Sequence record: MN445185.1
Length of the DNA stretch: 64,000 nt
Strand: one strand, 5' to 3'
From: Escherichia phage vB_EcoM_EC001
Shown here in pieces: positions 5,871-48,148 of this stretch (position 1 is the stretch's first letter; every line of letters starts with the position of its first letter). The notes under the pieces are model-generated. The model ran no database searches, was not told the origin of the DNA, and was given only the letters and a program-made list of their open reading frames with translations. The position numbers and the translations under genes were made by a program.

Positions 5871-6491
5871 ATGAGTCGTCGCAAAAAGAAACCCGCTTAT
5901 AACCCACGTAAAGACGCCCGCGATTTCGTCAAGGCGATGATGCAGTCTGTGTTGAAAAAACAAGCTGTGTTTATCGAAAGTACCGAATTCCTGTCAGGCA
6001 GAATTGATCGGGAGCGTGAAGTAACTGAAGCCATTACGCACGAAGAGCTGAAAGCCTTTACGTTGAAAGCGCTGGATGAAGCACAGGCGGCTTTCCTTGG
6101 CATGTGTCAGCAAGGCAAAGAGCTGTTCGGTAAACTGATTGTTGAGGCAGATGCTAAGGCTGTGCCGGTGTTTGACATGCTGAACGATAACAGCAAAACG
6201 TGGAAAGAAATCAAAGACCAGTTCCACGTCGACCACACCGAACTGTCCCTGATTGACCAGCGGGCAAACATGCTTGCGATGGATATTCAGGGCACCAGTA
6301 TCGAAATCTTCTCCACGTATAACGCGAAAGTGAAGTTCGTGAAGCAGGCGCTGAATAACGGGCATACCGTGGAACAAGCCGAAGTTCTGTTGGCTGAAGC
6401 TCTGGCTAATAATTCGAAGGAACTCCCTAAAAACGCCATCGTCGATCACAACGACGTTGTAGTAGAAACCGAGGAAGCGGCACATGTCTGA
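5871..6491 (+). CDS. hypothetical protein (206 aa)
   Basis: ATG 5871 preceded by AAAGGA; the track start 5829 is a TTG inside the palindrome. Confidence 0.7.
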   Translation: MSRRKKKPAYNPRKDARDFVKAMMQSVLKKQAVFIESTEFLSGRIDREREVTEAITHEELKAFTLKALDEAQAAFLGMCQQGKELFGKLIVEADAKAVPVFDMLNDNSKTWKEIKDQFHVDHTELSLIDQRANMLAMDIQGTSIEIFSTYNAKVKFVKQALNNGHTVEQAEVLLAEALANNSKELPKNAIVDHNDVVVETEEAAHV

Positions 6492-8454
6492 GATCCAAGA
6501 TCAGCGTCCGGGTAATGCCCGTCGCCCTAATCCCGACCAGCCAGCCCCTGTGGCGGCTGCTACCCAACAAGAGATGATTCTTCCGACCGTGCCTGATGAC
6601 GCGACCTCGGATGCAATCATCATGGCTATTAAACAAGCCAATCCCGATTTTTCTTTTGCCCGTGCAGAAGAAGTTTATCACCAACACTATCATCGTCCGG
6701 AGCCTAAGCTTGAGCGTCCGACGTTTGTAGAAGAGGCGTTGCCTGAACCTGCTGCACCTGTACCACCGGCACCTCAGACTTTTGCTGAACAGGTGCAGGA
6801 GCACCTACATCGTGCCCCGGAACCGGTAGTAGAGAAAGCGCCTACGGTAGAACCTGCTCCGCAGCCAAAAGCTCCGGAAGCGGTTGCACCGGCACAGCCG
6901 GCTGTAAAAGAAATGGAAGATGCAGCACCGAAGGTTCCGGAACAACAACAGATGCGTGAGATTGACTTCGGTAATACCCATTTAGCTGAAACCGCCGAAA
7001 TGGGTGAAGATGAAGCCGATCGTATTCTGACACAGTCGAAGATGTTGATTGGTCTGAAACAAGACCCTAACATCATTGCAGACTCCCTGCAAAAGTTCCT
7101 CGGTAATATTAAACGTTCACCGAAAGACGGCCGGCTGCTATTCGAAAGCCCTGAACAGCAACAGGTTTACGACGACATCTATCGTGCTTTGAACATGACC
7201 CCGCCACGTCTACAGGACGGCGTACCGGCATTCGCGGGTGCACTGGACCGTGGTGATACCGCTTGGGAACAGCGTGTGATGTTGCCGGACGGCAAGGCAT
7301 CTGGTGCTATTGCACCGCGTGACAATATGCACACTGGCGCGCTGGCTGCCTTACGTCGTGTACGTAAGTCGGGTATTCCGAACATGGTTTGGTTGCCGGC
7401 CACAGGTATCTACGTGGGCTTCCGCGCACCGCACGAACGTGACCTTTGTGACTTCGACATGCGTCTAACGCTGGAAACTGCGACCATCGGTATGCAGACC
7501 TACGGATTGATGCTGTCGTCGTCTTCTGGCGTGTACATGCGCCACATGGTTGAATTCGCACTTCAGTTTGTTACCGAAGCAACCATCGATTGTGCGGGTA
7601 ACGATCTGCGTACGGTGCTGTTGGATACCATTGATCTGGCTGACTACTGGCTGGTTATTCTGGGTCCGTTGCAGGCGAAGTGGCCGTCTGGTATTCCATG
7701 GACGCTGATGTGTGGCGAAGACGGTTGCAACCAGCAGGAAGATGTGAAGCTGAACATCGCGCGTTGTATCCGTTTCGGTTCCGGACTGTTTAGCGACCTG
7801 CAGAAACAACTGTGGGCACGTCAACGCGGTACTGAGCGTCCAGTGATTTCTATTGCAGAACAGCGCGAATATATCGCGGCGCATCAGGTTGATCCGTCCT
7901 CGGTATTTGAATACCACGACGTGCGTGTTGAATTTGGCCGTTCCACCCTGGGTAGCTTCTTTGACTCCACCGAGAAGTGGATTGAAGACGTTAACGCGTC
8001 AACTACGGCAGCGCTGTCTGAATTTGCTACCGAGCGTGAACGTGAATCCCATATGCGTTTAACTGCGGAAGCCCGTCGCTTAACGCGTTACGCTCACATG
8101 GTGAAGTCTATCACTGTTAATGAGCAACGTGAAGTAAACGGTGAAATGCAGGTTATCCCACAAACTGAAACCGACACAGCGAAAATCGTTGAGATGCTGG
8201 AAGAGCTGTCTTCCGACCGTATCTACGTTGGTCAGTTTGAAAACGCGATTGCTGAATACAACGAACGTACACGTTTAGCGGTATTCGGTTACATGGGTAA
8301 ACGCTGCCCGGCGTGTGGTAAAACACACGGCGAGAAAGACGGTCTGTATCGCGGTATTGTTACCATCAGTCCGGACAGGGTTTTTTTCGTGCTCTCTCGA
8401 GTGGTGTCCGAGATTCAGAAATTCTTGCTGGATCAATACGCCGATATTGGCTAG
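6484..8454 (+). CDS. hypothetical protein with Pro/Ala-rich N-terminal low-complexity region (656 aa)
   Basis: Long ORF, start overlaps upstream stop (ATGTCTGA); C-terminal CPACGK motif. Confidence 0.8.
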   Translation: MSEIQDQRPGNARRPNPDQPAPVAAATQQEMILPTVPDDATSDAIIMAIKQANPDFSFARAEEVYHQHYHRPEPKLERPTFVEEALPEPAAPVPPAPQTFAEQVQEHLHRAPEPVVEKAPTVEPAPQPKAPEAVAPAQPAVKEMEDAAPKVPEQQQMREIDFGNTHLAETAEMGEDEADRILTQSKMLIGLKQDPNIIADSLQKFLGNIKRSPKDGRLLFESPEQQQVYDDIYRALNMTPPRLQDGVPAFAGALDRGDTAWEQRVMLPDGKASGAIAPRDNMHTGALAALRRVRKSGIPNMVWLPATGIYVGFRAPHERDLCDFDMRLTLETATIGMQTYGLMLSSSSGVYMRHMVEFALQFVTEATIDCAGNDLRTVLLDTIDLADYWLVILGPLQAKWPSGIPWTLMCGEDGCNQQEDVKLNIARCIRFGSGLFSDLQKQLWARQRGTERPVISIAEQREYIAAHQVDPSSVFEYHDVRVEFGRSTLGSFFDSTEKWIEDVNASTTAALSEFATERERESHMRLTAEARRLTRYAHMVKSITVNEQREVNGEMQVIPQTETDTAKIVEMLEELSSDRIYVGQFENAIAEYNERTRLAVFGYMGKRCPACGKTHGEKDGLYRGIVTISPDRVFFVLSRVVSEIQKFLLDQYADIG

Positions 8455-40289: not shown

Positions 40290-42590
40290 ATGAAAGATAC
40301 CCGTATCGCTAGTCTGGACCAGCTGGTTCAGCAGGGCAATGCTCTGGTCGCTGCTGCCAAGGCAGGCTCTTCCGCTAATGACGTATGGCAAACCGTAGCC
40401 GTTGGCGAATCTGTACGTAAAAATGCTGCCGGCTTCACCAACCTGCGTGACACTGCTCAGCAGCACTACGAAGCTGTAAACCCTGGCAAAACCATGAGCC
40501 ACGCTGCTCAGGTTGCTTCTGCGATGATTCTGGCTGCTGCCGGTCACGAAGACGACTTCATGACCCGTGTTGCTGCCGAGAGCGCGAAGCCGGAATACGC
40601 CAGCTACATGCCGATCGCTATTTCTGGTGCAGCATCTCTGGCTGCTGACTACGGTAAAACTCCGCTGGTCGCAACTGAATACTACACCAACAAAGACCTG
40701 GACAAAAACCTGGGTCTGACCTGGACGCTGAACGTGCGTGCTCTGGAAACTCAATCCAAGTTTGCAGAAACCCTGTTCCCGACCATCACTGTGGACACCA
40801 ACGACGTCGGCATCACCGTTCGTACCAAAGTTACTACTGTATCTCGTGGTATCCTGAACGCCCTGCTGACCAAAGACGTGGTTGAAGACAACCGTCAGCC
40901 GCTGCATAACGCGCTGTCTAACCACAAAGTCCTGCAGGACGATGCTATCCGTATCGTACCTTACGTGATGGAAACCGGTGAGAACGCGAAGTTCTTCGTA
41001 TCCGAAGACATCATCGAAAACGAAAACGTTCAGCTGGGTCGTGTGCCGGCGTATCCGACCAACTACCTGAGCTTCTCTGAACGTCGTCTGAACCTGTTCC
41101 AGCTGTCTGCCCATCCGGGTATCGTGCAGGAAGGTTACGATGAAACCGACGAAATCGCACCGGGTGCAGCGCTGGGTAGCCTGCTGCTGTCTGTGCGTAA
41201 GCCGACTGAAGAAGCGAAAGATGGCGCGCTGATCAAACTGAACGTACGCGACATGCAGTTCGCTACCTTCCAGCGTCCTCCTGAAGGTGATGGCCGTGAG
41301 CTGGTCCTGCAGTTCCGTCGCACTGTGTTCTCCCTGAACGCCAAGTCTCTGGACTGGAAAGGTGCTGAAATCCCGGCACTGGCCGCTCTGGCACAGAACG
41401 ATTACACCATTCGTTATTCCATGAACATCAGCATGTCTCTGTTCACCAACGGTCAGTTCTCTGGTCGTGTTGACGTGACTGCACCGTCTCTGGAAATCGA
41501 AGGTCTGTACGACGCAACTGGTACTGCTGTTGATATCGAAAGCGGCACCGGTAAAGTTATCATCGACAACCTGAAACTGGAGCTGCTGGGCTGGCGCTTC
41601 GACGGTACTCGTACCAACGAGAACCGGAGAACCCAGGGCCTTCTGCTCGACCCGATTTGGGAACAAGAGAACTACAAACTGCAGTACGGTTCTCCGATCA
41701 TGACCAAATCTCCGGTTGGCGTTGAATACGACGACACCGAACGTCTGGACGACCTCGTTTCTGCGGTTAACATCCGTAACGAAATGCTGGCTATCACTCA
41801 GACTCTGTCTTACACCGAAGCGGTTAAGAACGCAGCTGCGTCCATGATCACTCCGTGGGACAAACCTGCTATCCGCGGCCTGGGCCGTCACTGGGTTGCT
41901 CCGTGGTACAGCGAAAGCGACTACGAAGTGGACAAAGTGATCCAGTCTCTGGATACCAAAGATGCGCTCATCAACGCCCGTCAGGGTCTGGTACAGCGTA
42001 TCGGCGACCAGGTAACTCGTGCTATCCAGGATTCTCGTTTCATGCCGGCTCTGCGCCTGCTGACTGCGGACCCGAACGCACTGCCGAAAGTTGTTATCGC
42101 AACTGACGAACCGACTGCTGCAATGCTGCTGCTGGTTCAGGGTGACCAGCGTCTGCTGGGCGATCGCTACGAGTACGAAGTTATCACCACCAACGATGAC
42201 CGCTGGCGTGTGAAGAACGAAGCTGACGGCAGCTGGACTCGCCGCCTGCAGTGGGTTCTGAAAGTTCCAACCGCTGATGACGGTTCTTACTGTGTTCTGA
42301 ACTGGGGTAACCACTTCTGGTCTCCGATCATGGTAACCAACATCAACATCCAGCGTAACGGCGCTACCAGCAAAGAGCTGGCAGTACAGCCTCGTAACGC
42401 GCACATCTGCCACTGCCCGATCACTGGTCTGATCTGGATTAAAGGTATCACCAAGTTCGTGGAAGAGAAACTGGCGTTCAACGTCACTACTACTTCCAAC
42501 GGTACTGGCGGTACTAATGGCGGTAATGCGGGTGATGTTGGCGGCGGCGCTACCCAGCCAGGTACTGGCGGTGAAGGCGCTGGCGGCTAA
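40290..42590 (+). CDS. abundant virion structural protein, candidate major capsid protein (766 aa)
   Basis: Strongest codon bias in the window; size typical of jumbo-phage capsid proteins; Gly-rich C-terminal tail; strong terminator downstream. Confidence 0.6.
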   Translation: MKDTRIASLDQLVQQGNALVAAAKAGSSANDVWQTVAVGESVRKNAAGFTNLRDTAQQHYEAVNPGKTMSHAAQVASAMILAAAGHEDDFMTRVAAESAKPEYASYMPIAISGAASLAADYGKTPLVATEYYTNKDLDKNLGLTWTLNVRALETQSKFAETLFPTITVDTNDVGITVRTKVTTVSRGILNALLTKDVVEDNRQPLHNALSNHKVLQDDAIRIVPYVMETGENAKFFVSEDIIENENVQLGRVPAYPTNYLSFSERRLNLFQLSAHPGIVQEGYDETDEIAPGAALGSLLLSVRKPTEEAKDGALIKLNVRDMQFATFQRPPEGDGRELVLQFRRTVFSLNAKSLDWKGAEIPALAALAQNDYTIRYSMNISMSLFTNGQFSGRVDVTAPSLEIEGLYDATGTAVDIESGTGKVIIDNLKLELLGWRFDGTRTNENRRTQGLLLDPIWEQENYKLQYGSPIMTKSPVGVEYDDTERLDDLVSAVNIRNEMLAITQTLSYTEAVKNAAASMITPWDKPAIRGLGRHWVAPWYSESDYEVDKVIQSLDTKDALINARQGLVQRIGDQVTRAIQDSRFMPALRLLTADPNALPKVVIATDEPTAAMLLLVQGDQRLLGDRYEYEVITTNDDRWRVKNEADGSWTRRLQWVLKVPTADDGSYCVLNWGNHFWSPIMVTNINIQRNGATSKELAVQPRNAHICHCPITGLIWIKGITKFVEEKLAFNVTTTSNGTGGTNGGNAGDVGGGATQPGTGGEGAGG

Positions 42591-43938: not shown

Positions 43939-45717
43939 GTGTTTAAAGATGCGATTAGGAAGATTAAAGAGGCAGGCGAAATAGTGCCTTTTAATCGTGC
44001 AATTGCAGAAGGAGTTGGGTACACACAAGCTAAAGACGGGATACATGATCGTGTGGCAACCATTCTACGTCGTGAGTTGACGTATGATGAAATCGATAAC
44101 CCGAAATTACCAGAAGGGTTAACGGTATTAGGTTGTCGCCAAATGTCGCCGTTTGAAGCTTTTATCTTTAAGTTATCGAAGTCGGATAACAATTCACGAA
44201 ATAATCGTGGCCGGTCAATTATTAACATCTCATCCACTGATACGTATATGGTAATGGCCTCGTTCCGAGTTCCAGGCGATCCTCGCCCGGTGCAACGACC
44301 AATGAGCTTACCATTTATTCGTCGTGGCGGCTTAATGAACTACTACGGTACAACGTACCACGTAGCACCTGTAATCCACCAACCTGGTATTTGTCGTGAG
44401 CACGGTGGTATCTTTATTAACTTTGACTTCACCCGCAAGGTGTCTATCAAGTTCTGTAAGAAACCAACGAAGATTCTGGTGAATGGTCGCCCTGAGCAGC
44501 TGTTCTTGCCAGGTACATCGAATCTGTTTGTCTCAACCGGACAGATTGGACACGACACCGATGAGAAGCCGTTGATGTATTGGCTCTTCGGGCGCTACGG
44601 CTTTAAACAAGCTGTGAAGCGTTATGCGGGTGTTGATGTGGCGATTTGGCCAGCGATTAAAGTACGTGATGTGGACTTAACGAAGTATGTGGTGATTCAG
44701 TCCGGTGAGCCACAACTCGCGAAGACCATCCAGTACGTACTGTTGGTTAAACGTGAAGATATGCCTAACACCGATGCAGGGCGTTGGGATCAGAATGAAC
44801 ATCTGTTGCTGGTAGCGACTGCCGCATTCTTCAAAGCAGCGCACTACTACGCAGGTAAACAGAACAGTAAGAACGGTCGTGCACCAACACTGCCGGGGCT
44901 GTTTACACAGATTAACGAAATGGCAATGGACGAAGATATTGCGAACCTCAATTCTGCAGCCTCCTGGCGCGAAGTGTTGGGTCGTAGTATTCGCGGACTG
45001 AAGCCTTCGGATATCGAACTGAGTCGCAGTATGGACAGCCACTTCCAGGAATGTGAACGCTATGTCAACAGCACCTTCCGTGGTGAGCTGATGGCAAACG
45101 ATCCGTCCATCCCTGATGATTTGGATATGTTTGATTTCCTCTGGTACACCACGCAGCTGATGGTGCGTACTCGTCTTACCAAACAAGATGATATTCCGTC
45201 TATGTACGGAAAACGTCTCACGGTAACCGATTACTTACTGTTGGGCCAACGTGGCTTTACCACAACGATCTCGAAAATACGTTGGAAGCTGGGGCAGTTG
45301 GAACATCGGACTCCAGAGACAGCGGCGAAGTCTATTCGAGACGCACTGAACAAACAGATCGTGCTCAATCTGGTGATGCGCACCATTACGAGCAACGGCG
45401 GTATCAGTTTCTTCAATGCCTCTACAGAATCAATGGTATTGGCAGTGTCTACGCACGCCATCGGTCAAACCGAAACCGATGCTAAGCGTTCGAAGAAAGG
45501 AGGCAAGACCGTTAACTTGAACGACCGTACTAAGCACGCATCTGCGTCGCATCTGGAATGTGGTAACGTCTACTATATTCCTAAGTCGGCACCGTTTAAG
45601 GCAAACATCCTCAACCCGTACATGAAGACCAACCCAAGTTTGGTAATGATGCGGAACCCTAAACTGGACCCGTACATCAGACCGACCGAAGAAGACATTG
45701 CTAAAATCGGCCGCTAA
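43939..45717 (+). CDS. hypothetical protein (592 aa)
   Basis: GTG start with GAGGGAGG SD 5 nt upstream. Confidence 0.75.
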   Translation: MFKDAIRKIKEAGEIVPFNRAIAEGVGYTQAKDGIHDRVATILRRELTYDEIDNPKLPEGLTVLGCRQMSPFEAFIFKLSKSDNNSRNNRGRSIINISSTDTYMVMASFRVPGDPRPVQRPMSLPFIRRGGLMNYYGTTYHVAPVIHQPGICREHGGIFINFDFTRKVSIKFCKKPTKILVNGRPEQLFLPGTSNLFVSTGQIGHDTDEKPLMYWLFGRYGFKQAVKRYAGVDVAIWPAIKVRDVDLTKYVVIQSGEPQLAKTIQYVLLVKREDMPNTDAGRWDQNEHLLLVATAAFFKAAHYYAGKQNSKNGRAPTLPGLFTQINEMAMDEDIANLNSAASWREVLGRSIRGLKPSDIELSRSMDSHFQECERYVNSTFRGELMANDPSIPDDLDMFDFLWYTTQLMVRTRLTKQDDIPSMYGKRLTVTDYLLLGQRGFTTTISKIRWKLGQLEHRTPETAAKSIRDALNKQIVLNLVMRTITSNGGISFFNASTESMVLAVSTHAIGQTETDAKRSKKGGKTVNLNDRTKHASASHLECGNVYYIPKSAPFKANILNPYMKTNPSLVMMRNPKLDPYIRPTEEDIAKIGR

Positions 45718-45748
45718 TTATTACATCTCTTAAGGAGTATTATTTACA

Positions 45749-47419
45749 ATGAGCATTACTGTTGAACAAATCAAAAACGTCATCGTTAAACACCTCGATC
45801 AGGACGCGGTACTGTCGCAGCTGAATAATGTGATGCGCAGCCGTAGCATTCCGCCAGATCAGGCGTTAAAGATTGCGACGTATGTTGCGGCATGGGCAGC
45901 ATCCAAAGGGGGTAGTGAAGCACAGGTTATCGCATATGCGGTCGATGCGTATAAAGCAGCTGCCTATCAGCAGGTGCATAACGCAGGCGACGCGTATAAC
46001 GACGATCGTCACACCAAACTGGTTAATGCTTGGGAACAAGTCGGTAAGATTCTTGCCGAAATTCGTTCTCAGCAGTCTGGCGGTTTGGGTGGCAGTGGTG
46101 GTTTAGGTGGTGGTAGCAACGCAGGTGGGTTACTGGGCGGTAACAGTTCTGGCGGTGTTCGTGTTACTGATGGCCTGACCATGTCTTCTGCGCCATCTGG
46201 TGGTGTTAAGATTGGTAACACAGATGCGGCACTAACCGTGATTGCTGGCGGTGAAGGTCTTAACCTGGTCAATGATCCTATTCTGAACCCACAACCGGCG
46301 CAAGTAGCCCCAGCACAACAGCCCCGGCCTGAACCAGCACCGGTGCCTGTACAACCAATGCCGGTGTCTAATGCTACAGTTAATAACCCAGTGCTTTCCC
46401 CACTCGGCGCAACAGAAGAAACCGAGAAGGACACTATCAATGGCCCAATTAACAACATTCTGCAGGAGATTGATTTGATGGAAGACTACGCACTTCACGA
46501 GCTGAAAACCCCCGAGCTTAAAATGTCGATTCCAGCGAAGGAAGCTAACAGTCGCATTAAGCAATCTGTTTACGCGGAAACTCGTGATTGGGCTACACCG
46601 TTGCAAGATATCTTTAACGGTAATGAAGAGGTTGTTTTCTACGACGGGGCTGACCTGATTGTGCGTGCACGTGATAGCTATCGCGCGTATCTGGTCGGTG
46701 TTAACACTGACATGTGCGAACGCATGAAACAATTCGTTGCTAAGCACGATGCGCTGAAATCCGATCTCGACAACCTGGCACTGGTAGAAGATGTTGAAAC
46801 TATCATGGCTAAGGTGAAGCGTACGATCGATGAACTGCGTAAGAACACGAAAGAACTGCACGAATATGCGATTGCGAACAGCAGCGAAGCAGAAGTGGTT
46901 ATCAGTGAAATTTCTCGCTTTGCTAATGCGTACCTGGCGAATATCACTTTCCTGGTACACAACGCGCTGTCGCTGGGCACTAAGCGTGGTAAAGATGTGC
47001 CGAAGTTCAAAGCTATCGATTTCGAACGGAAAATCAGCGATATTGATTTCTTCGTAAAAGATCTGTTCACAGCAACCGCTGGCGACAACGGTGTAAGTGA
47101 ATATGAAGACTGGTTCCGTGACCTGTTCCTGATGGTAGCAAACTCTCTGCGCAAACTGACTATCAAGCTGAGCGATTCTGGCAAGGTGGTTAATCTGATT
47201 CAGAGCCAGTTCACCATCGTGATTCCAGGCATGTACCATTCTGTTGATAAACACGACGTAGTTACGGTAGCGTCTCTGGGCAATACCGCAGACCCAGTTG
47301 TGTCTATCTACGAAGCAGTACAGGAAAACGTGCCACATGCAATTGTGTTAATGCAGCTGCCGCAGCGCACCTACCTGCTTCTGAGCAATGGTGAGAAAAC
47401 TGCACCAGTGTTGTACTAA
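45749..47419 (+). CDS. hypothetical protein with Gly-rich and Pro-rich linker segments (556 aa)
   Basis: CTTAAGGAGTATT SD context; followed by terminator. Confidence 0.8.
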   Translation: MSITVEQIKNVIVKHLDQDAVLSQLNNVMRSRSIPPDQALKIATYVAAWAASKGGSEAQVIAYAVDAYKAAAYQQVHNAGDAYNDDRHTKLVNAWEQVGKILAEIRSQQSGGLGGSGGLGGGSNAGGLLGGNSSGGVRVTDGLTMSSAPSGGVKIGNTDAALTVIAGGEGLNLVNDPILNPQPAQVAPAQQPRPEPAPVPVQPMPVSNATVNNPVLSPLGATEETEKDTINGPINNILQEIDLMEDYALHELKTPELKMSIPAKEANSRIKQSVYAETRDWATPLQDIFNGNEEVVFYDGADLIVRARDSYRAYLVGVNTDMCERMKQFVAKHDALKSDLDNLALVEDVETIMAKVKRTIDELRKNTKELHEYAIANSSEAEVVISEISRFANAYLANITFLVHNALSLGTKRGKDVPKFKAIDFERKISDIDFFVKDLFTATAGDNGVSEYEDWFRDLFLMVANSLRKLTIKLSDSGKVVNLIQSQFTIVIPGMYHSVDKHDVVTVASLGNTADPVVSIYEAVQENVPHAIVLMQLPQRTYLLLSNGEKTAPVLY

Positions 47420-47426
47420 GTAATAC

Positions 47427-47460
47427 GGAGACCTTCGGGTCTCCTATTATTATTTTTTAT
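47427..47460 (+). terminator. rho-independent terminator
   Basis: GGAGACC-TTCG-GGTCTCC hairpin then T-rich run. Confidence 0.8.
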
Positions 47461-47484
47461 TCTATCATGAAAAGGAGTATTAAA

Positions 47485-47751
47485 ATGTCTAGTGTTGAAG
47501 CAGTAATCTATTTTGAAAACGATGGGGTCGCAGGGTGTGGCTTCCCGAAGACAACAGGGGTTAAATCTCTGTTGGCAAAGTATAAAGAAGAGCTTAAGAA
47601 AACGGCAGGGCAGAACCCTGGCGTGCCACTGCGTAGTGTTTTTCCTGAGATGGAGAAGGCCGCAAAAACTGATCCGGTGTTGGATATGTTCTGCGGGATG
47701 ATCAAAGAGCGATTCCCTGACATTGATAAGTACCACATTACGCTGGCGTAA
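47485..47751 (+). CDS. hypothetical protein (88 aa)
   Basis: ATG 47485 preceded by AAAGGAGTATT; the track start 47467 has no SD. Confidence 0.6.
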   Translation: MSSVEAVIYFENDGVAGCGFPKTTGVKSLLAKYKEELKKTAGQNPGVPLRSVFPEMEKAAKTDPVLDMFCGMIKERFPDIDKYHITLA

Positions 47752-47785: not shown

Positions 47786-48088
47786 ATGGTAAAGTTCATT
47801 GTTGTCAACATGGATTTTGAGCGTAGTGTGCGTTTTCGCTTTGAGTTACCTGAAAACAAAGCGACTGAAGCTTTCTTAGCCGACTTCCACAAAGCCAAAA
47901 CAGCGATCAGTCATGGACGTCGCTGGCAAATCTTCTATAACGCCCGTAAAGGCCTCCTGAAGGCGTTAAAAGCAGCAAAGGATACAAAGGTATTGGAAAA
48001 GCTAGAACCTTTCCAGAACGACCCTCTGGCGATTGGTATCATGCTCGACGAACTGGTTAATAAACCCAAAGCTGCTACAGAAGATTAA
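47786..48088 (+). CDS. hypothetical protein (100 aa)
   Basis: GAGG SD; followed by bidirectional terminator. Confidence 0.6.
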   Translation: MVKFIVVNMDFERSVRFRFELPENKATEAFLADFHKAKTAISHGRRWQIFYNARKGLLKALKAAKDTKVLEKLEPFQNDPLAIGIMLDELVNKPKAATED

Positions 48089-48148
48089 AAAAAGAAAAGG
48101 TACCTCTCCCCGAAGGGAGAGGTAAACCTTATTTCTTTTTCTTTTTTT
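48089..48148. terminator. bidirectional rho-independent terminator between convergent genes
   Basis: TACCTCTCCC/GGGAGAGGTA hairpin flanked by A-run and T-run. Confidence 0.85.

Follow-up and report, generated by a model that had tools for sequence, protein, structure and literature searches.

A predicted disordered Gly-then-Pro linker in the Seoulvirus gp78 ortholog, a probable divergent relative of the jumbo-phage protein JADA

The 64,000-nucleotide stretch of Escherichia phage vB_EcoM_EC001 analysed here (record MN445185.1; hereafter the window) carries a gene at 45749..47419 that encodes a protein of 556 aa. The gene begins 31 nt beyond the stop codon of a gene for the N-terminal fragment of a beta-like subunit of the non-virion RNA polymerase (nvRNAP), no site resembling a terminator was detected in this gap, and a gene for a portal-like virion protein follows downstream (Table 1). 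Its DNA is 97.5-98.7% identical to that of 33 SPN3US-like jumbo phages of the genus Seoulvirus. In SPN3US the counterpart gene lies at 75564..77240, flanked by those for the 'polymerase' and the portal-like virion protein, and Thomas et al. 2016 number it gp78; the two proteins differ by seven substitutions and one 2-aa insertion or deletion (indel), and the neighbouring genes match SPN3US gp77 and gp79-81. Judged by its sequence, the product is the ortholog of SPN3US gp78, the same gene among the same neighbours. Thomas et al. (J Virol, PMC5105663) found gp78 to be essential and absent from virions and suggested a regulatory role, and no domain, linker or relation to another jumbo-phage protein, JADA, is noted there. 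Here, we describe a long, low-complexity segment at aa 112-227 of this protein. We consider it likely that the segment is a disordered linker, and that gp78 is a shortened and sequence-divergent member of the JADA family, to which phiKZ gp124 and Pa36 gp316 belong.

The initial annotation had read 46070..46390 (aa 108-214) as a Gly-rich stretch followed by a Pro-rich stretch, together suggesting a flexible linker between domains. Both runs lie within that span: GGLGGSGGLGGGSNAGGLLGG at aa 111-131 (nt 46079-46141) and PQPAQVAPAQQPRPEPAPVPVQP at aa 181-203 (nt 46289-46357). Measured against the 37 window open reading frames (ORFs) of at least 200 aa, the Gly run holds 13 Gly in 21 residues over a background of 6.1% (binomial p = 2e-11) and the Pro run 9 Pro in 23 residues over a background of 4.5% (p = 3e-7), and none of the 37 has a denser Gly or Pro window. 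Shuffling the 556-aa protein 20,000 times never reproduced the density of either run. Tandem Repeats Finder detected no DNA tandem repeat, so the bias is one of composition at the protein level and not a slippage array.

Structure prediction places this region between two confidently modelled domains. To collect homologs we searched 5.8 billion clustered proteins and, with a hidden Markov model (HMM), 1.84 billion representatives; the HMM search returned just 22 relatives, and the family is therefore very narrow. An AlphaFold2 (AF2) run with 10 close homologs gave an unusable model (mean predicted local distance difference test score, pLDDT, 46.7), and a rerun with 24 diverse homologs reached a mean pLDDT of 77. 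In the latter model a five-helix N-terminal bundle (helices at aa 5-15, 20-31, 37-52, 57-78 and 86-112) is followed by a stretch of very low confidence in which no secondary structure is seen apart from a short strand at aa 153-154. A short confident piece at aa 228-239 and a second low-confidence stretch at aa 240-257 then lead into a larger C-terminal alpha/beta domain. The low pLDDT of aa 112-227, flanked on both sides by confident domains, bears out the claim of a flexible inter-domain linker.

Comparison of linker length among homologs points the same way. Across the 24 homologs the N-domain measures 107±3 aa and the C-domain 315±2.5 aa, and these flanking domains are constant; the linker measures 112±15 aa, ranges from 84 to 138 aa and collects most of the alignment gaps. 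The outcome named beforehand as contrary to a linker, a region both ordered and conserved residue by residue, was not found for the linker, within which an island at aa 135-153 is conserved. Family linkers are low in charged (9.7%) and aromatic (1.7%) residues, and they keep a polarity, with Gly concentrated in the first half in 24/24 homologs and Pro in the second half in 22/24. The Gly-rich hinge is indel-rich (6-12 gap columns among homologs). Among homologs with 50-70% overall identity, the Pro-rich part is 28-39% identical with up to 13 gap columns; over homologs at large its identity is 17-39%, with up to 18 gap columns. Even between the window protein and SPN3US gp78, six of the seven substitutions and the sole indel fall within aa 169-230: three substitutions and the indel lie in aa 181-206, and the other three flank it at aa 169, 175 and 230.

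A linker of this sort is in itself an ordinary kind of feature. The linker of bacterial single-stranded DNA-binding protein (SSB) and the Ala/Pro-rich linkers of 2-oxoacid dehydrogenase E2 subunits are likewise uncharged tethers, either Gly/Pro/Gln-rich or Pro/Ala-rich. They run for tens of residues between a core that oligomerises and a binding module that stays mobile, and they preserve their composition although length and sequence drift. Both proteins are unrelated to gp78, and the SSB linker ends in an acidic tip, not in a folded domain.

Table 1. Features of the gp78 locus, in window coordinates, with the domains and linker elements of the 556-aa protein
Feature	Position	Strand	Remarks
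nvRNAP beta-like subunit, N-terminal fragment (SPN3US gp77, phiKZ gp123 homolog)	43939..45717	+	upstream gene; phrog_2943 'polymerase', E 8e-188
Ribosome-binding site AAGGAG	45732..45737	+	11 nt 5' of ATG; read directly from sequence
Whole gene, 556-aa protein	45749..47419	+	ATG start; single uninterrupted ORF
N-terminal domain, five-helix bundle, aa 1-111	45749..46081	+	AF2 pLDDT 81-92 (about 85)
Full predicted disordered linker, aa 112-227	46082..46429	+	AF2 pLDDT 20-45, <50 throughout; block means 29-46
Gly-rich hinge, aa 108-134, QQSGGLGGSGGLGGGSNAGGLLGGNSS	46070..46150	+	45% Gly; Leu sole hydrophobic residue
Conserved island, aa 135-153, GGVRVTDGLTMSSAPSGGV	46151..46207	+	includes first of 2-4 G-phi-x-phi mini-motifs
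Pro/Ala/Gln/Val-rich spacer, aa 181-206	46289..46366	+	32% Pro; least constrained part of protein
Boundary motif, aa 231-255, NGPINNILQEIDLMEDYALHELKTP	46439..46513	+	invariant columns in 24 sequences
C-terminal alpha/beta domain, aa 258-556	46520..47416	+	AF2 pLDDT 90-97
Codon Q485 (SPN3US gp78 Q487, lethal am3 site)	47201..47203	+	mapped via protein alignment
Intrinsic-terminator-like hairpin GGAGACC-TTCG-GGTCTCC with T-rich tail	47427..47458	+	8 nt past stop codon
Portal-like virion protein gene, 914 aa	48151..50895	-	downstream gene

The position of the gene links it to JADA, the name given to Pa36 gp316, whose ortholog is phiKZ gp124 (Muralidharan et al., Mol Cell 2026, PMC12931631). JADA is an essential, early and abundant protein found primarily in Chimalliviridae, and the position of its gene after nvRNAP is invariant. 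It consists of an N-domain (1-170), a long disordered region (171-269) and a C-domain (270-721) that forms a rigid ring homodimer (PDB 9RP3), with the N-domain and linker invisible in cryo-EM, and it is the C-domain that triggers the Sir2 NADase of Avs5 (PMC12931631). Early expression, a place at early-infection (EPI) vesicles and activation of Avs5 are properties reported for Pa36 and phiKZ only. The phiKZ gp124 sequence is 99.9% identical to that of 9RP3 over all 721 residues. The text and supplements of PMC12931631 make no mention of SPN3US or Salmonella phages.

In phiKZ the order of genes is DnaB - gp119 - major capsid protein (MCP) gp120 - gp121 - gp122 - nvRNAP gp123 - gp124 (721 aa) - ... 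- portal gp129, which is the same as in the window and makes gp124 the positional counterpart of the 556-aa protein; the products of the upstream genes, 24% identical between the two phages, are likewise counterparts, SPN3US gp77 being annotated in that phage as a polymerase and named as the nvRNAP beta N-fragment (PMC5105663). We gathered related loci by tblastn and from annotated records, a locus search by nvRNAP alignment having given only 7 loci. The order MCP, hypothetical protein, nvRNAP beta, this gene, portal-like protein also holds in phiKZ, Goslar, Eowyn, PhiEaH1, FLC4-11C, PCH45, RAY and Vibrio phage pVp-JHP1101, and a hypothetical protein of 618-852 aa follows the nvRNAP gene in pVp-JHP1101, Goslar, Eowyn, PhiEaH1, Ralstonia phage FLC4-11C, PCH45 and RAY. 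In 10/10 of the nucleus-forming jumbo phage genomes and contigs examined, the slot after nvRNAP beta holds a domain-linker-domain protein. Two features of JADA membership are present in the 556-aa protein, its position directly after the nvRNAP beta gene and, in the AF2 model, its three-part layout.

The two proteins are further alike in that each gene is co-oriented with the nvRNAP beta-like gene within the MCP-to-portal block, each product joins a helical N-domain through a long disordered linker to a larger C-domain, and each is confined to nucleus-forming jumbo phages and has no Pfam family. According to the literature, which for the present gene is that on SPN3US gp78, both are also essential and non-virion, and loss of either disturbs phage gene expression. 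As a third feature of membership, the C-domain of the AF2 model has the JADA fold (PDB 9RP3), which is without relatives outside jumbo phages. Foldseek searches of the model against BFVD returned family members together with weak matches to jumbo-phage proteins of about 650-890 aa (probability 0.41-0.97) and to the N-part of phiPA3 gp140 (probability 0.69), a recorded homolog of phiKZ gp124 (PMC11849849); these matches are a weak lead and not a proof. At the level of sequence, a comparison of profiles by hhalign (alignment A2 against A3) gave one local match of about 50 columns (E 1.4e-4, probability 53%) around M-[ED]-x-Y-x-x-H-E-L. This motif lies in the boundary segment at aa 231-255, which alone is linked to JADA by sequence and in which the family's most conserved residues, E245, H250 and L252, stand in MEDYALHEL at the junction of linker and C-domain; JADA has MDYLKHEL and the Vibrio phage positional ortholog VENYEAHEL.

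Outside this local match there is no significant sequence similarity to JADA. Searches of PDB sequences with the single protein or with a 24-sequence profile returned only coiled coils and Gly-rich tags at E >=0.16, a Pfam search gave only a sub-threshold Rootletin coiled-coil match, which we rejected, and the one PHROGs match, phrog_8185, is of unknown function. Several observations weigh against placing gp78 in the JADA family or against our account of its linker. An HMM of 11 gp124-family sequences detects the positional orthologs of FLC4-11C, Eowyn, PCH45, PhiEaH1, Goslar and RAY, but misses both the 556-aa protein (E 0.22 in a 9-sequence database) and the Vibrio ortholog. Aligned over the whole C-domain, hhalign gives only E 0.06-0.15 against JADA, and significance was not improved by splitting domains or by adding positional orthologs; Foldseek of the model against the PDB found nothing at E <0.48. 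The protein is 165 aa shorter than JADA and is without the JADA segment at about 270-385, which bears the invariant NPGGIEIRPAH; its N-domain has 111 aa against 170 and its C-domain about 300 against about 450, and its linker runs from Gly/Leu to Pro/Ala/Gln where that of JADA is made of Gly/Pro/Gln/Met/Asn. Finally, pLDDT is only a proxy for disorder, and the tether mechanism set out below is one that we infer. Taking both sides together, fold and synteny would place gp78 as a JADA-family member that has become shorter and has diverged beyond recognition by sequence.

Genetic data from the two systems suggest when such a protein acts. Grown under non-permissive conditions, the SPN3US amber mutant 78(am3), which carries a stop codon at Q487, makes no detectable virion proteins (PMC5105663, Table 3); the corresponding residue of the window protein, Q485, is invariant among 10 close homologs. 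In phiKZ, knock-down of phiKZ124 by antisense oligonucleotides (ASO) strongly changes phage transcription at 30 min. Because of these two phenotypes we place the action of the protein upstream of late gene expression. We propose that C-domains dimerise as in JADA, so that two helical N-domains would extend from each dimer, each on a tether of about 115 residues. The Gly-rich hinge beside the N-domain would allow free rotation, and the Pro-rich spacer beside the C-domain, being stiffer, would give reach, so that the N-domains could find and capture a partner at a distance of several nanometres from the ring. Repeated G-phi-x-phi motifs and the 19-aa island may add weak or fold-on-binding contacts, and the action of the protein as a whole would precede or coincide with the change to middle and late gene expression driven by nvRNAP.

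The island at aa 135-153, together with the recurring mini-motif, means that the linker is not purely passive. In homologs 50-70% identical overall, the island shows 67-83% identity with 0-1 gap columns, which equals or exceeds the conservation of the folded domains, and G136 is nearly invariant across the 24 homologs; we regard it as a candidate binding or fold-on-binding element. An explanation to which we give appreciable weight, though well short of an even chance, goes further and takes aa 135-182, where VRVT, LTM, VKIG, LTVIA and LNLV stand between Gly/Pro turns, as a small beta-structure or a fold-on-binding element. Its docking site would be the C-domain ring, the nvRNAP subunit of the adjoining gene, or a shell or vesicle protein, and only aa 108-134 and 183-227 would be flexible. 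The alternating hydrophobic pattern of this segment, the nearly indel-free island and the short AF2 strand all fit it, and the invariant NPGGIEIRPAH of JADA, from a structured region, resembles GGIRV, albeit weakly. Against it, the island stays at a pLDDT of about 30 even with the 24-sequence alignment, hhalign aligns it to no segment of JADA, and its conservation fades in the most distant family members; within the alignment of 10 close homologs (A1) it falls to 35% identity with two gap columns in the most remote one, P0013.

The mini-motif G[IVL]x[IVL] (G-aliphatic-x-aliphatic, or G-phi-x-phi) raises a second possibility. It recurs in 2-4 copies per linker in 21/24 sequences, with 58 occurrences against 13.8±3.5 in composition-preserving shuffles, none of 2,000 of which reached 58; this fourfold enrichment is indicative only, since the control ignores kinship among the sequences. 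The enrichment persists in the 17 more divergent sequences, and the three members without the motif carry NPFL (four copies) or xF[GS] repeats instead. Set against FG-nucleoporin-like cohesive domains, in which many short hydrophobic motifs are spaced by uncharged polar residues, the gp78 linkers are low in charge and carry a repeated motif, but its hydrophobic residues are aliphatic and its copies number only 2-4, and Phe-based repeats occur in only two homologs. The low-complexity region might be an active sticker-and-spacer assembly module with repeated hydrophobic stickers in a Gly/Asn/Ser/Pro matrix, whose multivalent self-association or condensation would concentrate the protein and its ligands at the EPI vesicle or at the nascent nucleus. 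We think this unlikely, though not negligible. It would agree with the localisation of JADA in foci at EPI vesicles (PMC12931631). Purified JADA is, on the other hand, a discrete dimer by both cryo-EM and mass photometry (PMC12931631), and linker composition is not conserved between clades, as a pure spacer would predict.

The chemistry of linkers across JADA-position proteins can be read in favour of either role. Those of Vibrio phage pVp-JHP1101, PhiEaH1, FLC4-11C and Serratia phage PCH45 are about 150-220 aa long and rich in Arg/Asp/Ser/Glu, with 44-55% charged residues at a net charge of about zero and with RG/RGG and RS-like tracts. Eowyn and RAY have Q/N/Y/P-rich linkers; the Goslar linker has Q/Y/P-rich tracts, its longest segment of low hydrophobicity being A/P/E/D-rich. 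The phiKZ linker is G/P/Q/M-rich, phiKZ-group linkers are Q/N/G-rich with F/M/Y stickers, and the window protein has G/L followed by P/A/Q. (Hydrophobicity-based disorder boundaries split the window linker at its Leu/Val stickers and were used for composition only.) A tether is always present and its chemistry differs by clade, which suggests that disorder and reach are what is selected and favours the tether as the simplest reading. Such compositions are, however, typical of condensate-forming, self-associating low-complexity regions, and together with the repeated motifs they keep an active multivalent role alive as a rival.

The most elaborate version of that role makes the JADA linker the working part of the protein. 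It would be a clade-specific low-complexity module, Gly-Leu/Pro here, prion-like Q/N/F/Y in phiKZ, RAY and Goslar, and RGG/RS/RD-like in PCH45, PhiEaH1, Ralstonia and Vibrio phages, that nucleates a multivalent, condensate-like hub at the EPI vesicle. Early transcripts, ribosomes or freshly synthesised nvRNAP would collect in this hub ahead of closure of the ChmA shell, and the linker would be a counterpart, in a bacterial virus, of the low-complexity scaffold proteins of eukaryotes. The 78(am3) phenotype would then reflect loss of the hub. This is a speculative proposal to which we give only a small chance of being right.

Returning to the disordered tether of a JADA relative, the adjoining nvRNAP gene would also suit a quite different protein, a sigma-like fifth nvRNAP subunit, the counterpart of phiKZ gp68 and AR9 gp226, in which the linker would be of the sigma-type inter-region kind. 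Like gp78, gp68 and AR9 gp226 are phage-specific, essential and encoded near nvRNAP genes; their loss blocks middle and late transcription, as loss of the present protein abolishes late proteins, and homologs of gp68 are said to occur in all such phages. However, the phiKZ gene at this position is gp124, distinct from gp68, which lies elsewhere in phiKZ, no sequence or fold match between gp68 or AR9 gp226 and the 556-aa protein was found, and the protein matches no PDB chain in sequence, deposited nvRNAP structures included. We have dropped this assignment as very improbable. That the region is meaningless filler or an artefact of two merged genes or a frameshift, as the annotation of the phiPA3 ortholog in two pieces with a break in the linker-coding part might hint, is hardly credible. 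More than 30 phage genomes and 24 divergent homologs keep one uninterrupted ORF and a common three-part layout, the Gly-then-Pro polarity is maintained, and the amber stop in the C-domain is lethal, which means that this domain is translated from this frame.

As late as June 2026, a review (PMC13282480) counts JADA among early proteins without a known function; the protein is known mainly as the trigger of Avs5 defence. If gp78 is the JADA of the Seoulvirus and Erwinia-phage clade, JADA would become a candidate core gene, extended to a clade in which the 11-sequence JADA profile fails. The mutant 78(am3) would then give an existing genetic handle, making a role of JADA in the switch from early to late expression directly testable. 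A minimal version of 556 aa, set against 721, would delimit the conserved core and may indicate which features of enterobacterial jumbo phages are open to recognition by Avs5-type sensors and which are not. What our analysis adds, in both cases by computation and on the strength of a predicted structure, is the putative placement of gp78 in the JADA family and the recognition of a linker island and repeated mini-motifs.

Several minor observations concern the JADA-position genes of other phages. In phiPA3 (NC_028999, 2480-4586) the annotation gives the JADA ortholog as gp140 (261 aa, plus strand), with an antisense 'gp141' overlapping it; by tblastn, two plus-strand pieces cover 88% of phiKZ gp124, and the split is probably a frameshift or mis-annotation within the low-complexity, linker-coding part. 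A 264-kb uncultured IMG/VR contig from a very distant jumbo phage carries at 6625..8070 a 481-aa ORF that follows and slightly overlaps an nvRNAP beta homolog, and its product consists of an N-domain, a low-complexity stretch rich in Q/M/P/G and a C-domain.

Other observations concern database records of gp78. Three proteins from Salmonella phages SPFM14, SPFM8 and SPFM20 (P0010-P0012; LR5359xx) present gp78 in blocks of about 20 aa with the block order reversed, a pattern equal to that of the 60-nt lines of a nucleotide record in reverse order. We rejected them as true homologs, since they are an artefact of deposition or file handling; the reversed lines also account for many-piece tblastn matches to SPFM1, 5, 6, 8, 9, 10, 12, 15 and 20. 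The exact 556-aa protein is recorded at NCBI in Salmonella enterica serovar Enteritidis (locus tag BZX62_02685) on a contig of 242,690 bp, and a whole jumbo-phage genome has therefore been deposited inside a bacterial assembly.

Further features of the window lie outside the gene. Two small genes (47467..47751 and 47786..48088) stand between strong GC-rich hairpins at 47427..47444 and 48101..48124. These hairpins have T-rich tails on both strands and look like bidirectional terminators that part the nvRNAP-JADA unit from the convergent portal-like gene. Low-complexity termini recur in neighbouring structural genes: the MCP (766 aa; 40290..42590, plus strand) has a Gly-rich C-terminal tail at aa 738-766, GTGGTNGGNAGDVGGGATQPGTGGEGAGG, and the C-terminal 80 aa or so of the portal-like protein are rich in Gly/Asp/Thr/Glu. 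The Pro/Ala-rich N-terminus that had been pointed out in the product of 6484..8454 (plus strand, 656 aa) is present as well. Pro and Ala make up 18% and 17% of the first 150 aa of this protein, but 4% and 8% of the remainder. It has no Pfam family, and its PHROGs matches, phrog_8054 and phrog_4585, have no known function.

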